Below are positions 4,891 through 54,022 of a DNA stretch of 64,000 bases, piece by piece. This DNA is from Deltaproteobacteria bacterium ADurb.Bin151. Its GTDB lineage: Bacteria; Desulfobacterota; Syntrophia; Syntrophales; Smithellaceae. The notes under the pieces were generated by a model. It had not been told where the DNA came from. It saw only the letters and a list, made by a program, of their open reading frames with translations, and did no database searches. A program made the position numbers and the translations under genes. The stretch spans positions 7,062 to 71,061 of the forward strand of contig MWDG01000002.1 of assembly GCA_002070455.1 (NCBI GenBank), given 5' to 3'. The number at the start of each line of letters is the position of its first letter. Position 1 is the first letter of the stretch.

Positions 4891-7479
4891 TCACACAGTG
4901 CTTTGCCGTTTTAGTTCATCTCTTATGGCCAAACCGATTTTTTCTAGTACATAGGGCTTCTTTACATAAGCACCCGCCCCAAGTCTCTGTGCCTCTCTGA
5001 CGCGATCCGTTTCGGAAAAACCACTGACAATGATAGCCTTCTGTTTCGGGTTGATCTCCAGAATTTTCCGGTAGGTCTCCATGCCGTCAATTCCCGGCGG
5101 CATGATCATATCCAGAAGCAGCAGGTCTGCCTTGTTTTTCCCGAGGTATTCAACTGCCTCCTCCCCGCTGGAAACGGTATGAACATTATATCCAAGTTTT
5201 TGAAGCAACCCAGAAGCGATGTCCCTTTGATCAGCCATGTCATCAATAATTAATATCGATTCCCCACTGCCCATGTAACGTTCTATCGGTTCACCAGGTT
5301 CCGTTGCAATTATTTCTTGACGTGTTATGGGAAAGTAAAGAGTAAAGGTTGTCCCCGTGCCGACTTTTGTCTGCAAATCAATATATCCGTTATGATCTTT
5401 TACCGTTCCCCACACAATGGGCAAACCCAGGCCGGTTCCGCTTCTTCTCGCTGTCTTTTTTGTATAAAACGGTTCAAATATCTTTTCTCTGTTCTCGTCC
5501 GGAATCCCCGTCCCGGTATCTGTAACACTCAGGATGGCATAATCGCCATGAAGGATTTCATCATAGCCCTTAACCGGTTTATCCAGGTAGCGATTCTCTG
5601 TCCGGACGATGACCTCTCCCTCTCCTGGTATCGACTCTGCCGCATTCAACACCAGATTCATCAAAGTCTTGTCCAGATGGACAGGAGAACCTTTAATGTT
5701 CAGGAGGCCCTCTTCACATTCTGCCCTGAAGGTTACCATAGGATGATTGCTTGTTATTTTCTCAAACAATGGTGTTTTAAGAAAAGCCGACACAATATCG
5801 TTTAGATTGATCACCTCTGAAACGGTGACGCCCCTTCTGGTCAGCGTAAGAAGATCCTGAATAATCGCAGACCCTTTCTCTGTGGACTTCATAATCTTTT
5901 CAGCGTAATCTCTGGACGTATGTCCCTCCGGAATTTTCATCAGCAGCAGCTCCGAATAACCGGAAAGGGCTCCTAAAACATTATTCAGATCATGGGCCAC
6001 GCTGCCTGCCATTCTTCCGAGAATCTCCATCTTCTCCGCACGCTGAAGGCGATCCTCCAATTTTCTCTTCTCATCCTCCGCCTTTTTCTGGGCGGTGACG
6101 TTTCGCGCAATACCCCGAAATCCGATCGGCTCGCCTTTGGTATTTCGCTTCAGGGACACTGAAACTTCAAGAAATCTTTTCATCCCGTCTTTTCCGATGA
6201 TTTCTACATCGGATAACGCGACCGGTTCACCTGTTCTGTAAATTCCGTTGAACAGCCGATACATGATTTTAGCGTTTGTTTGATCCTGATACTGACGATT
6301 GTTCATCCCAATCAGTTCATCTCTGGAATATCCGAGAATTCTGCATTGCGCATCATTCACATAGGTATAATTACCTAAAAGATCGACCTCATAATAGCCT
6401 TCTTCCATCTGTTCTATGATGGTACGATATTTTCCCTCGCTTTCCAGCAACGCTTCTTCGGCCTGCTTGCGTTCGGTAACAACAAGCTCAATTCCATCCC
6501 ACCGAACATCGCCATTTTCCATCACAGTGGGAGTTGATGACAGGTGAGACCACCTTATTCCTCCCGAAGGCTCCCTCTCCCGTACCTCCACCGAAAAAGT
6601 GGATAAAGTTTTTAATGCTTCCTCTTCAGTTTTCATTAACAAGGCGATATCATCTTCATAGACGTTGCCGTATATGAGATTCGCATCAGCCATGACTTCT
6701 TCCGGTGTTGCGCCGTGCAGCCTTTTTACCGAATCGCTTACATAGGTAAATTGCCTTGTTCCGTCGACCTTCTTCATAATCTGATAGATCATTCCCAAGG
6801 GAAGATTGTCGCTGATGGACTTGATGCGAAGTTCATTCTCCCGCAAGGCTTCGTTGAGCAAACCCAGCTCTTCATTTTTCCTGTTGAGCTGTCCTTCGGC
6901 CTGTATCCTTACCCTGATCTCACTTTCATAGCTGCGGGCCAGAAGCCAGATCATAACTGATATACTCACGAGAAAACCAACAATAAGCACAACCCTGTTT
7001 ACAAATACAACTTCAGCCGTTCGGAAAGGTTTTATGTAACCAATGGATATCACCCAGGCAAGGCCAAGATACGTCGCAAGACAGATCGCAAGTGCGATCC
7101 ACATTTTCCTCGGCCCGTAAATAAACGCCACAAACATGATCAGAATTGCATACATGAAATTGCCCGGTGCATCGATTCCGCCGATATAGTTTGCGTTGAC
7201 TGCAGGGATGTACATCAGCAGCGGGAGGATGATACCGGCAGCTCGCCAGAATCCTGCTTTCGTGAGCAACATGGCCCCGAAAAGAAGGATCGAAAGAATA
7301 ACAAGAATCAGCAGCGTATCAAAAGGCATTTTGCCTAACAGATACAGGATGAAGGTTATTAGAGAAAAAGAGAATGTAATGCTAAATGAAAAAAACAATA
7401 AATTGCGGGTGATATATTCCCGCCTCGCCATTTCCGGATCGGTTTCGTTTAACTTACGGATGAATGTTAATGGGTTCAT
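4891..7479 (-). CDS. Hybrid sensor histidine kinase (multi-TM N-terminus, PAS domains, HisKA-HATPase, C-terminal receiver)
   Basis: 862 aa. About 6 N-terminal hydrophobic helices, two PAS-like segments, H-box SVAHDLNNVLG, ATPase boxes DTGTGIP and GTGLGLPIV, and a receiver ILIIDDM...LLLLDMIMPPGIDG...K. Confidence 0.9.
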   Translation of the reverse strand: MNPLTFIRKLNETDPEMARREYITRNLLFFSFSITFSFSLITFILYLLGKMPFDTLLILVILSILLFGAMLLTKAGFWRAAGIILPLLMYIPAVNANYIGGIDAPGNFMYAILIMFVAFIYGPRKMWIALAICLATYLGLAWVISIGYIKPFRTAEVVFVNRVVLIVGFLVSISVMIWLLARSYESEIRVRIQAEGQLNRKNEELGLLNEALRENELRIKSISDNLPLGMIYQIMKKVDGTRQFTYVSDSVKRLHGATPEEVMADANLIYGNVYEDDIALLMKTEEEALKTLSTFSVEVREREPSGGIRWSHLSSTPTVMENGDVRWDGIELVVTERKQAEEALLESEGKYRTIIEQMEEGYYEVDLLGNYTYVNDAQCRILGYSRDELIGMNNRQYQDQTNAKIMYRLFNGIYRTGEPVALSDVEIIGKDGMKRFLEVSVSLKRNTKGEPIGFRGIARNVTAQKKAEDEKRKLEDRLQRAEKMEILGRMAGSVAHDLNNVLGALSGYSELLLMKIPEGHTSRDYAEKIMKSTEKGSAIIQDLLTLTRRGVTVSEVINLNDIVSAFLKTPLFEKITSNHPMVTFRAECEEGLLNIKGSPVHLDKTLMNLVLNAAESIPGEGEVIVRTENRYLDKPVKGYDEILHGDYAILSVTDTGTGIPDENREKIFEPFYTKKTARRSGTGLGLPIVWGTVKDHNGYIDLQTKVGTGTTFTLYFPITRQEIIATEPGEPIERYMGSGESILIIDDMADQRDIASGLLQKLGYNVHTVSSGEEAVEYLGKNKADLLLLDMIMPPGIDGMETYRKILEINPKQKAIIVSGFSETDRVREAQRLGAGAYVKKPYVLEKIGLAIRDELKRQSTV

Positions 7480-43746: not shown

Positions 43747-44421
43747 TTATTCGCCTTCCGCCAGTGATTCCAGTGCATGATGATCCAGGATGGTAATGAC
43801 CCGCCCCGAGGTGGAGAGGATGCCGTCATTTGCCATTTTTCTCAGGGTACGGGAAAGCGCTTCGGGGGTCGCCCCCAGAATTTTGGAAAGCTCTCTTTGT
43901 GAAATTGTCAACCTGATAGCGGCACTTTTCGCTTTTGCATCCCCGGCCGGCAATGAATGACGCAGGAAAGAGGCCAGCCTGCCGGGAAGCTCTTTCAGGG
44001 CAAGCGATTCTATCAGGGTCATGGACTCTTTGAGACGCTGCGACAGGATTTGGATGATGTTCAGCAGGAGCGCCGGTTCCTGCATGGCTGTCGCTTCCAT
44101 AACGGTACCGGGGATCAGGAGCACCGTGCTCTCCACAATGGCCATTGCACTGGCCGGAAAGGAGTCCGTGGCAAAAGCCGTGCAAAGGCCGAAAGGATCT
44201 CCCGGACCGAGCAGCTGCAGCGTCTGCTCTTTTCCTTCCGACGAACTTCTGTAGAGCTTTAACTGGCCGGATATGACCACGTAAAATGATTTGATCGGAT
44301 CTTCCTCGCCGAGAACCATTTCGCCGGCTTTGTATTTTTTGAATGTGGCCTGCGCCGTAAGGGTTCGTATTTTTTCCGGAGCAACACCCTGAAAAAGCTT
44401 TATATCCATGATTTGATTCAT
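43747..44421 (-). CDS. Crp/Fnr-family transcriptional regulator
   Basis: 224 aa. cNMP-binding-like barrel and a C-terminal HTH ISQRELSKILGATPEALSRTLRKM with the E--SR recognition motif. No FNR-type N-terminal Cys cluster. Confidence 0.9.
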   Translation of the reverse strand: MNQIMDIKLFQGVAPEKIRTLTAQATFKKYKAGEMVLGEEDPIKSFYVVISGQLKLYRSSSEGKEQTLQLLGPGDPFGLCTAFATDSFPASAMAIVESTVLLIPGTVMEATAMQEPALLLNIIQILSQRLKESMTLIESLALKELPGRLASFLRHSLPAGDAKAKSAAIRLTISQRELSKILGATPEALSRTLRKMANDGILSTSGRVITILDHHALESLAEGE

Positions 44422-44452: not shown

Positions 44453-44494
44453 TTGATTTAGATCAATGAAACACAAATCACCAGCATGTATATT
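44453..44494 (+). promoter_or_regulatory. FNR/CRP-type box plus -10 element (class II geometry) upstream of trxA
   Basis: Perfect TTGAT-TTAG-ATCAA at 44453-44466. TATATT lies at 44489-44494, so the box centre is about 41.5 nt upstream of the expected start site. The box centre is also about 38 nt upstream of the divergent regulator ATG. Confidence 0.6.
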
Positions 44495-44549
44495 TTTACC
44501 ATAGACGAGCCAAAGAAGCTAAACAAAAGATTAAGGAGAATATAAAAAA

Positions 44550-44891
44550 ATGAGTAATTCAGAATATGTAAAACATGCGGACGATGGTAATTTCAATTCA
44601 ATGGTTTTAAAGGCGGAGAAACCTTCCCTGGTGGATTTCTGGGCCCCCTGGTGCGGGCCATGCCGTGCAATAGGTCCGATCCTGGAGGATGTGGCCACCC
44701 AGTATGAAGGAAAGGTGAATGTGGTAAAAGTCAATGTGGATGATAATCCCGCAACGGCATCACGGTATGGCGTAAGAAGCATCCCCACCCTGCTTCTCAT
44801 TCACGGGGGAAAGGTGCAGGAAACGCAGATCGGTTTGCTGTCCAAACAGCAGCTGACAACCATGATCGAACGTCATGTCACATCAATGTAA
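44550..44891 (+). CDS. trxA: Thioredoxin
   Basis: 113 aa. WAPWCGPCR active site. AAGGAG upstream. Confidence 0.95.
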   Translation: MSNSEYVKHADDGNFNSMVLKAEKPSLVDFWAPWCGPCRAIGPILEDVATQYEGKVNVVKVNVDDNPATASRYGVRSIPTLLLIHGGKVQETQIGLLSKQQLTTMIERHVTSM

Positions 44892-44909
44892 CTGGAAAGG
44901 ATAAAGGAG

Positions 44910-45068
44910 ATGAGCGATATTTTGATCTTGTTGCTGATCATCGGAGTGTGGTTTTTTGTTCAGGCTTGGCTACTGCCCAGACTGGGCATATCCACCTGAA
45001 TGCGTCCCGCCTGTCCGGTTCCGGACAGGAAGAAAAAAACGAAAGTAACAGAATCGACAGAACCTTAA
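44910..45068 (+). CDS. Candidate small membrane (seleno)protein; conventional ORF ends at TGA 44997-44999, possible read-through to TAA 45066-45068
   Basis: Not in the track. AAGGA lies 8 nt before ATG 44910. Translation: MSDILILLLIIGVWFFVQAWLLPRLGIST-TGA-MRPACPVPDRKKKTKVTESTEP. A hairpin begins 11 nt after the TGA (next feature). Confidence 0.35.
45010..45029 (+). promoter_or_regulatory. Strong hairpin after the TGA, SECIS-like and not a terminator
   Basis: CCTGTCC-GGTTCC-GGACAGG (up to 9 bp if the loop closes to TT). It is followed by AAGAAAAAAA rather than a U-tract, and the apical loop contains GGUU. Confidence 0.35.
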
Positions 45069-45073
45069 AAAAA

Positions 45074-45099
45074 GCCGTCCCGCGGACAGGCGGGACGGC
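45074..45099 (-). terminator. Rho-independent terminator of hup (possibly bidirectional)
   Basis: GCCGTCCCGC-GGACAG-GCGGGACGGC, a 10-bp GC-rich stem followed on the minus strand by TTTTTTT. Confidence 0.8.
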
Positions 45100-45128
45100 T
45101 TAAGAAAACCATGCAATAAAGCCTTTAC

Positions 45129-45398
45129 TTATTTTACCGCATCCTTTAAATCTTTCCCGGCCTTGAACACCGGAACTTTCTTCGCGGAGATCTTAATGGC
45201 TTCACCCGTCTGCGGATTTCTTCCGGTACGGGCTTTTCTCTTGCTGACACCAAACGTACCAAACCCGACAAGCGTTACCGTGTCGCCTTTCTTAAGGGCC
45301 TTTTTGATTGCCGTCAATACTGCGCCTACAGCTTCTTCCGCTTCTTTTTTGCTGCTTGTAACCTTTGCCACTTCTTCGATCAAATCTGCTTTGTTCAT
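45129..45398 (-). CDS. hup: HU-family nucleoid protein
   Basis: 89 aa. MNKADLIE...GFGTF...RTGRNPQTGE..I, the canonical HU/IHF signature. Confidence 0.95.
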   Translation of the reverse strand: MNKADLIEEVAKVTSSKKEAEEAVGAVLTAIKKALKKGDTVTLVGFGTFGVSKRKARTGRNPQTGEAIKISAKKVPVFKAGKDLKDAVK

Positions 45399-53674: not shown

Positions 53675-54022
53675 TCAGGTTTTCATGATTTCTGCCAAAG
53701 CCTTACTGTCCACCCCAAAATAAACTTTTCTGTCAACCTTCACGATGGGACGGCGAATAAGGCGCGGTTCTTTCAGCATCAGGTCAATCAGATCTTTATC
53801 CTTGAGATTTGCCTGATCCAGCCCCAGTGACTTAAAACTGGGTGAACGAAAACTGAACATCTCCGAAGCCGGCTGTTTCTGCAGCAGTGCGTTGATTTCT
53901 GTACGTGTAAAAGGTGTCTTGAAAAAATCCCGTTCGTTGATTTCCACTTTCTTTTGCAAGAGATACTCCCTTGCTTTACGGCAGGTGTTTCATTTATTCC
54001 AGCAGAAAAAGTCAATTTTCAT
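53675..54022 (-). CDS. ArsC/Spx-family thioredoxin-fold selenoprotein (UxxC); in-frame TGA at 53990-53992
   Basis: ATG 54022 has AAGGAG 5 nt upstream. Translation: MKIDFFCWNK-U-NTCRKAREYLLQKKVEINERDFFKTPF...LIRRPIV.... The TGA replaces the first Cys of the family's CxxC (compare Spx SPSCTSCRKARAWL). The track only shows the TTG-started remainder (53675-53959). Confidence 0.8.
53956..53974 (-). promoter_or_regulatory. Candidate bacterial SECIS hairpin
   Basis: The mRNA reads GCAAGGG-AGUAU-CUCUUGC (7 bp including one G-U pair). It starts 16 nt after the UGA, and the apical loop carries GU 23-27 nt from the UGA. Confidence 0.55.

Follow-up and report, generated by a model that had tools for sequence, protein, structure and literature searches.

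A probable single-pass membrane selenoprotein encoded downstream of trxA in a Smithellaceae bacterium, and its unnamed family

Layout of the locus

The DNA analysed here is a stretch of 64,000 nucleotides (nt) from Deltaproteobacteria bacterium ADurb.Bin151 (Smithellaceae; assembly GCA_002070455.1, contig MWDG01000002.1, forward-strand positions 7,062 to 71,061), in the following denoted the window. The subject is a small gene on the plus strand of this window, at 44910–45068, which contains an in-frame TGA codon and follows a thioredoxin gene. The latter, trxA (44550–44891, plus strand), encodes a cytoplasmic-type thioredoxin of 113 amino acids with a WCGPC motif and scores 126.9 bits against TIGR01068 (cut-off 96.8 bits). 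Its end is separated by a gap of 18 nt from the ATG at 44910, and a Shine–Dalgarno-like AAGGA (44897–44901, plus strand) can be read in the sequence 8 nt upstream of this ATG; comparable AAGGA or AGGAG motifs precede the start in homologues. From the ATG, an open reading frame (ORF) of 29 codons, MSDILILLLIIGVWFFVQAWLLPRLGIST-TGA, extends over 44910–44999. When the TGA codon at 44997–44999 is read through as a predicted selenocysteine (Sec; UGA30 in the mRNA, U30 in the product), the frame continues as U-MRPAC-PVPDRKKKTKVTESTEP to a TAA at 45066–45068, and the entire candidate gene then comprises 52 codons including UGA30. The extension carries the TGT codon of Cys35 (45012–45014), presumed to be the partner of Sec30 in a U-x4-C pair and invariant across all Sec forms described below. 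A re-reading of the sequence agrees with the initial annotation of this DNA on the 29-codon ORF, its distance from trxA, its AAGGA and its end at TGA, and translation confirms the read-through to TAA with a U-x4-C pair and a basic tail that had been proposed there.

Two hairpins accompany the gene. One, with a stem of 7–8 base pairs (bp), lies within the extension at 45010–45029 on the plus strand, where it also codes for A-C-P-V-P-D-R. The other is a strong hairpin with a 12-bp stem at 45072–45101, located 3–5 nt downstream of the TAA and shared with a convergent HU gene (45129–45398, minus strand). Its T-run is found on the minus strand only, and the hairpin is thus primarily the HU terminator and at best bidirectional. 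The initial annotation had placed the TAA just in front of the “real terminator”; the position stands, while the function of this hairpin belongs mainly to the minus strand. On the plus strand it has an A-run upstream, yet a plus-strand RNA contig of run X25 ends at about 45108.

At least 20 independent metagenome runs from digesters or sludge contain the DNA of the locus without a single difference, so that the TGA codon is no assembly error. Moreover, 13 of 30 long ORFs in the window end ordinarily with TGA, more than with any other stop codon. A genome-wide reassignment of the codon is therefore not indicated, and any recoding must be local.

Conservation of the TGA codon and its extension

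Close relatives were collected by a metagenome scan with homologue alignment and one exact look-up, which yielded 28 loci with 26 distinct sequences at 62–83% peptide identity. A word-based protein search returned homologues of only 29–36 residues, every one ending in ...LG[IV]ST, and gene callers and databases list only the 29-residue product. A protein of 63 amino acids from an NCBI record (P0007) that resembles a full-length homologue was rejected as a frameshifted reading of a near-identical locus. Searching genome contigs with TrxA provided generic thioredoxins only (best 61%, from a metagenome-assembled genome (MAG) of Syntrophales) and no syntenic relatives.

At the DNA level, the TGA codon, the in-frame extension, the Cys at U+5 and the hairpin are kept in all 28 loci, and conservation of the extension in related genomes, suggested as a check by the initial annotation, is thus borne out. 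TGA is invariant in the 26 distinct sequences. The Thr codon that precedes it appears as ACC, ACT, ACA or ACG, and the terminal stops of the homologues are a mixture of TAA, TGA and TAG. Downstream of TGA the homologues share the consensus [MVI]-[RK]-x-[ASTG]-C-P-[VAG]-x-D-[KR]-K..., with the true stop 17–25 codons further on; frame 0 remains open over this distance in every homologue, and the remaining two frames close early. Codons 1–4 past TGA show entropies of 0.85, 0.45 and 1.17 at the three codon positions, as compared with 0.55, 0.21 and 1.19 in the upstream ORF. Synonymous codons are used freely (CGT, CGG, CGA, CGC, AGG and AGA for Arg; CCC, CCT, CCG and CCA for Pro), and indels among the homologues keep the reading frame. 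The codon next to TGA is ATG or GTG in 20 of the 26 sequences and GTC, GTA or ATA in the other six, from which it follows that re-initiation of a separate ORF is not conserved.

Sec and Cys forms of a wider family

A profile built from 25 distinct read-through products was searched against 1.84 billion representative proteins and retrieved 385 clusters (50% identity), and the residue at the U position was tallied for the best 150 of these. In 61 clusters the protein stops straight after Thr, in 23 a Trp occupies the position, and in about 53 it is a Cys, 48 of which have a second Cys at +5. The stop and Trp forms together represent about 85 TGA forms among the best 150 clusters: for the Trp forms, all five DNAs that were looked up have TGA at that codon and had been called under genetic code 4. 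The 23 Trp clusters are attributed to gene callers that apply code 4 to short contigs (P0013–P0082 and others). Such annotation artefacts, together with the frameshifted P0007, conceal the family in public collections.

The Cys forms are single polypeptides that span both halves of the sequence (...GIxT-C-MSGA-C...), and with them the search for Cys-containing homologues that the initial annotation had recommended gave a clear positive result. They are annotated solely as “hypothetical protein” and are hosted by MAGs of Deltaproteobacteria and Planctomycetota; the family overall, with at least 385 clusters, occurs in anaerobes of the Deltaproteobacteria type, in Planctomycetota, and in metagenomes from the sea and from soil. 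Its consensus can be written M-x-D-x-L-x6-A-x-W-x2-L-x2-W-x-L-P-x2-G-I-x-T-[U/C]-M-S-G-A-C. In an alignment of 35 sequences L22, P23, T29, U/C30 and C35 are invariant, and W14 and W20 are invariant or nearly so. Selenoprotein families are conventionally recognised by just such a Sec/Cys pair within a motif that does not vary. The gene thus joins a large family, so far unnamed, whose members have either a predicted Sec or a Cys at one and the same position.

Two sequences deviate from this pattern. Locus L116 (569–751) has GGA (Gly) in place of TGA and retains a hairpin, CUUGUC-AGGU-GACAAG, at the usual site; the contig coverage is only 1.8×, and the Gly codon may reflect an error in sequencing, or Sec may have been lost very recently. 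The metagenomic protein P0008 (65 amino acids), from the Smithella-type clade, combines a Cys at the Sec position with Phe in place of the second Cys (...STCVREAFLVKNRKKK...), and may be a degenerate copy or derive from an error-rich contig.

The hairpin downstream of the UGA codon

The hairpin at 45010–45029, CCUGUCC-GGUUCC-GGACAGG, starts with the 11th nt past TGA and can alternatively be drawn with 8 bp and the loop GUUC. An A-run follows on its 3′ side and neither strand carries a T-run, in agreement with the earlier description of a perfect hairpin 11 nt after TGA that is no intrinsic terminator on either strand. Within the window this hairpin occurs a single time, with zero chance matches expected; it is therefore no generic repeat, a possibility that had been raised as a potential refutation. 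The region 44990–45110 folds better than 200 of 200 shuffled sequences (z = −4.8), with the terminator contributing most.

In the close clade, the stem reads CUUGUCC/GGACAAG with the loop GGUCNA, and the start is always the 11th nt past UGA. Across 20 distinct rows, 97% of the cells are paired, compared to 33–50% in controls with a slid pairing partner, and compensatory changes are found in two of the seven pairs: C–G against G–C, and U–A against C–G with a U–G intermediate. Variation at third codon positions within the stem amounts to 0.52, with TGT and CCG invariant. This suppression indicates an RNA constraint in addition to the protein constraint.

Five diverged Sec forms have a hairpin 11–17 nt past UGA, with stems that are unrelated in sequence (CCUGUC/GACAGG, CUGCC/GGCAG, ACCUCCC/GGGAGGU, GCGGGCCG/CGGCUCGC and AUGCUC/GAGUAU) and with the loops AGUU, AGUC, CGUGC, AGUU and GGUC, respectively. 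One of these hairpins has its 3′ arm in a reading frame other than that used in the gene of the window. Throughout the Sec forms examined, the loop starts 17–24 nt past UGA and has a G in its first two positions. Conversely, no hairpin was found at that position in any of the four Cys-form loci. The initial suggestion that the hairpin acts as a bacterial Sec insertion sequence (SECIS), for which a covariance check had been proposed, thus gains support from the compensatory changes and from the persistence of the hairpin with unrelated stems in diverged relatives. In two loci (L094 and L105), a 3-nt in-frame deletion about 30 nt past TGA has removed half of the loop, leaving CUUGUCC-GGU-GGAUAAG with a G–U pair; the stem persists with a loop of 3–5 nt, which may mark the lower size limit for SelB.

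The SECIS of E. coli fdhF has the loop GGUC, starting at nt 19, and bSECISearch asks for 16–37 nt from UGA to the loop and a G early in the loop. The geometry of the predicted element matches both. Rfam scans gave no SECIS match at the gathering threshold or at E ≤ 10 and returned sub-threshold matches only, mostly on the terminator; to our knowledge, Rfam holds no curated bacterial SECIS model.

Decoding of the UGA codon

The invariance of TGA, the coding character of the extension and the relatives with an aligned Cys support the recoding of TGA that the initial annotation had put forward. We consider it highly probable that UGA30 is decoded as Sec and that a single product of 52 residues results; likewise, 44910–45068 is very probably one gene, co-transcribed with trxA, for a single-pass membrane selenoprotein. 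On arrival of the ribosome at UGA30, the stem-loop from the 11th nt downstream would serve as a bacterial SECIS, with a loop that begins about 18 nt past UGA and opens with GG. SelB and Sec-tRNA would then insert selenocysteine instead of termination, as judged from conservation.

A further indication for the use of Sec comes from a second gene in the window. In an ArsC/Spx-like gene at 53678–54022 (minus strand), TGA takes the place of the first Cys codon of the CxxC motif (...FCWNK-U-NTC...), and only with read-through does the full length of this gene reach the cut-off of TIGR01617 (78.7 versus 75.05 bits). An 8-bp hairpin with the loop GUA is located 3′ of its UGA. Judged from its sequence, this is a second selenoprotein gene, and because its match to the model depends on decoding TGA as an amino acid within CxxC, the organism would use Sec. 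Adjacent ORF pairs split by TGA elsewhere in the window were also considered as selenoproteins and turned out to be ordinary glycogen-metabolism genes.

If the gene instead ended at UGA, its product would be a membrane peptide of 29 residues, and the hairpin and the downstream conservation would reflect mRNA stability, attenuation or a re-initiated ORF of 22 codons. This product is the form listed by gene callers and databases, and a potential start codon (ATG or GTG) stands immediately 3′ of TGA in the 20 sequences mentioned above. Furthermore, partial termination is expected in any Sec gene, so that the short peptide is probably also made as a by-product. Against re-initiation, the second part has no Shine–Dalgarno motif, TGA is followed by GTC, GTA or ATA in six of the 26 sequences and by CTC in locus L117, and the coding periodicity runs straight across TGA. 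An ordinary stop would also be expected to alternate between the three stop codons, as is seen for the terminal stops, and in the roughly 53 Cys clusters one continuous polypeptide has Cys in place of UGA and shares the motif that follows. Taken together, termination at UGA30 as the true end of the gene appears highly improbable. Read-through without Sec, by near-cognate insertion of Trp or Cys or by a suppressor tRNA and stimulated by the hairpin, would likewise yield the long product. Hairpins 3′ of stop codons are able to stimulate read-through, and the Rfam scans without a SECIS match could be taken in the same sense. However, the relatives that lack TGA have an aligned Cys beside the second invariant Cys, which is the classic Sec/Cys signature, the position of the hairpin and its G-containing loop fit a bacterial SECIS, and the ArsC/Spx-like gene provides a second UGA at a CxxC site. 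We attach next to no probability to this explanation.

Several observations weigh against the assignment as a selenoprotein gene or restrict its scope. Covariation in the close clade is modest, with changes on both sides in only two of the seven pairs and no variation at all in three, and the stem overlaps conserved codons (A-C-P-V-x-D-K), so that protein and RNA constraints are partly confounded. Some members have the loop GGCUCC, and GU is therefore not universal. The contrast between Sec and Cys forms with respect to the hairpin is based on four Cys-form loci only. Neither a tRNA-Sec nor any other tRNA gene lies within the 64-kb window, and expression is supported at the transcript level only, by metatranscriptome contigs. 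Diverged Sec forms have varied neighbours, among them a cupin, a TGS GTPase and an ECF sigma factor. AlphaFold2 is confident for the helix only, with a predicted local distance difference test score (pLDDT) below 60 for motif and tail. Finally, the function, the topology and the thioredoxin partnership described in the following sections are inferred.

Protein architecture

The predicted product consists of a short acidic N-terminus, one transmembrane (TM) helix, a juxtamembrane motif L-P-x-x-G-I-x-T-U-x4-C-P and a Lys-rich tail. Family members have a length of 47–55 residues. The TM helix covers residues ~4–23, encoded at 44919–44978 (plus strand), and is assigned from the hydrophobic segment ILILLLIIGVWFFVQAWLLP and the AlphaFold2 model, in which residues 2–26 form a helix with pLDDT ~90 for residues 1–20 and the remainder is flexible. 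From the acidic N-terminus and the abundance of Arg and Lys beyond the helix, the positive-inside rule lets us infer an N-out, C-in topology, which would place U30 and C35 at the cytoplasmic face.

Relation to known families

An inventory of May 2026 (PMC13188914) lists 119 families of prokaryotic selenoproteins in its Table 1, and none of these is similar to a single-pass U-x4-C peptide; no similar protein was found in the deep-Sep paper either (PMC12013277). The Sec form and ten Cys forms gave no match to Pfam or NCBIfam models, no sequence relative was found in the PDB, and a literature search on DUF2892/YgaP as a selenoprotein or on the CMSGAC motif returned nothing relevant.

Compared to known bacterial genes with a SECIS, such as fdhF and those of the Sec-thioredoxin type (UxxC/CxxU), the gene is similar in several respects: the in-frame UGA, a stem-loop from the 11th nt with the loop at ~18 nt, an early G in the loop, alternation of Sec and Cys in homologues, and a nearby second Cys suggestive of a selenenylsulfide. 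It differs from the UxxC redox selenoproteins in its U-x4-C spacing, its single membrane helix, the lack of a thioredoxin fold, and its membership in an uncatalogued family. Among eukaryotic proteins, SELENOK and SELENOS are single-pass membrane selenoproteins of the endoplasmic reticulum (ER) with an N-terminal helix and a disordered cytosolic tail that bears Sec; in SELENOS, Cys and Sec form a selenenylsulfide that is reportedly reduced by thioredoxin. Their SECIS is of the eukaryotic type, located in the 3′ untranslated region, and their Sec is found at the very C-terminal end of the protein and not beside the membrane. The resemblance is an architectural analogy only, and no sequence relationship is claimed.

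The likeness to DUF2892/YgaP-type domains noted in the initial annotation did not hold up as homology, although the genomic link behind it is real. Both are small membrane proteins with Cys-Pro near a helix end, and both are found with rhodanese. A DUF2892 gene lies directly downstream in 13 of the 28 Sec loci and near two of the four Cys forms. However, DUF2892 proteins have two helices and the motif G-F-C-P-L-Y (G-x-C-P-x-Y), whereas the peptide has one helix and the sequence W-L-L-P-R-L-G-I-S-T-U with no C-P-x-Y. The hidden Markov model PF11127 (DUF2892) gave no match at E ≤ 10 to the 29- or the 52-residue form. When the trimmed family alignment was compared by hhalign with eight neighbouring DUF2892 proteins, the probability was 0.6–1.5%, equal to the reversed control. 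A score of 99.8% with the untrimmed alignment was discarded: reversed and column-shuffled controls gave 99.7%, which identifies it as an artefact of ragged tails. DUF2892 is therefore better described as a neighbour and possible partner; kinship is not supported by the sequence comparisons.

DUF6132 (PF19628) shares with the family a motif, G-C-x-[ST]-G-x-C-P, that follows right after a helix and is comparable to the C-M-S-G-A-C of the Cys forms, and differs from it in having two helices. Neither Sec nor Cys forms matched PF19628 at thresholds of E ≤ 1 to 10, and hhalign gave a probability of 13% for an alignment of 14 columns around the motif, with shuffled controls at 0.2–25%. Kinship with DUF6132 is unproven. 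One Cys-form locus, L113, encodes a DUF6132-like two-helix protein of 58 residues with G-C-Q-S-G-S-C-P (773–949; 22.7 bits versus a cut-off of 23.2), and thus holds two distinct small membrane proteins that share C-x4-C(-P), this one and the Cys form.

Promoter, regulator and transcript

Divergent from trxA, a CRP/FNR-family regulator of 224 amino acids with a single Cys is encoded at 43747–44421 (minus strand); it matches the NCBIfam models FtrB, Fnr and CRP, all below cut-off, and a homologue occupies the divergent position in 16 related loci. An FNR/CRP-type box, TTGATTTAGATCAA, is located at 44453–44466. It is a perfect TTGAT-N4-ATCAA, the sole one in the window, and 19 related loci retain it in front of trxA. 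A consensus scan places a promoter-like site, ATGAAA-17 nt-TATATT, at 44466–44494 (plus strand), and the box is centred about 42 nt before the transcription start that the −10 element TATATT (44489–44494) predicts.

Metatranscriptome contigs from four runs begin at 44518–44525. One RNA contig of 598 nt corresponds exactly to 44518–45108 and covers trxA, the candidate selenoprotein gene and the terminator. This indicates a bicistronic mRNA, contigs being weak evidence for transcript ends.

Gene neighbourhood and proposed function

Thioredoxin is encoded directly upstream in 22 of the 27 Sec loci with enough flank, and in three Sec loci without trxA (L085, L092 and L107) a rhodanese gene is adjacent. 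The DUF2892 genes found directly downstream in 13 of 28 Sec loci encode YgaP-like TM proteins of 67–68 residues. Among the Cys forms, the gene order in L109 is ArsR, rhodanese–YgaP_TM, metallo-beta-lactamase–rhodanese, the family gene, TauE, and a pyridine-nucleotide disulfide oxidoreductase. L111 shows rhodanese, YgaP_TM, thioredoxin, ECF sigma factor, zf-HC2 anti-sigma factor, the family gene, ArsR, and RND efflux. In L112 the family gene is flanked by a thioredoxin gene on each side, and in L113 it follows thioredoxin and the DUF6132-like gene and precedes DsbD_TM–thioredoxin. To judge from these genes, the common thread of the neighbours is thiol, disulfide and persulfide chemistry.

Motif and neighbourhood together suggest a function, which we propose tentatively: the product could be a selenenylsulfide relay or sensor at the membrane face that is recycled by thioredoxin and has DUF2892 proteins and rhodaneses as partners. 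U30 and C35 would cycle between the selenenylsulfide and the reduced form, the co-transcribed cytoplasmic thioredoxin would be the reductant of the pair, and the product would act as a thiol or persulfide relay, or as a sensor, along with YgaP-like (DUF2892) proteins and rhodaneses. The redox role linked to thioredoxin that the initial annotation had favoured is in line with the motif and the thioredoxin neighbourhoods, the role itself being deduced from them.

The main functional rival is metal handling, i.e. a true selenoprotein that chelates soft metals or metalloids (Hg, Cu, Zn, As) at the membrane face in the manner of small Mer-type proteins. C/U-x4-C-P beside a membrane is typical of metal-binding sites, and the ArsR-type regulators seen in two Cys-form loci would fit, with L111 continuing into RND (CzcB/CzcA-like) efflux after the family gene and L109 forming an ArsR-headed operon. 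ArsR/BigR-type regulators also govern sulfide and persulfide operons, however, and the neighbours are mostly thioredoxins, rhodaneses, YgaP-like TM proteins, DsbD_TM–thioredoxin and persulfide-dioxygenase-like genes. In the Smithella-type loci, neither a metal transporter nor a chaperone is encoded. The catalogue of PMC13188914 includes several membrane selenoproteins that transport metals, which counts in favour of a metal-related role; on balance, we regard metal handling as unlikely.

Implications

The gene is very probably an authentic and expressed member of a new, uncatalogued selenoprotein family, which stands out by its small size and predicted membrane location, by how widely it is distributed and by how closely it is coupled to trxA. 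As catalogues of selenoproteins derive mainly from ORFs with recognisable domains, a membrane protein of 50 residues that is cut at codon 30 is easily missed. Public databases hold the family mostly as 29-residue fragments or Trp forms, and its recognition would correct many annotations.

Going further, and here we are slightly more doubtful than about the redox function as such, this undescribed family might be the smallest among bacterial selenoproteins and perhaps the first with a single membrane pass. It would then provide a thioredoxin-recycled selenol/thiol relay at the cytoplasmic face that passes or senses sulfane sulfur (or selenium) together with DUF2892 proteins and rhodaneses, an architectural counterpart of SELENOS and SELENOK whose SECIS doubles as the code for a C-P motif. 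Such a SECIS would be a clean case of a stem shaped jointly by RNA pairing and a conserved protein motif. If the proposal is true, DUF2892/YgaP-TM and perhaps DUF6132, both large families of unknown function, would gain a concrete partner and a testable role, and the thioredoxin-dependent thiol and persulfide metabolism of syntrophic digester bacteria would include an element at the membrane face.

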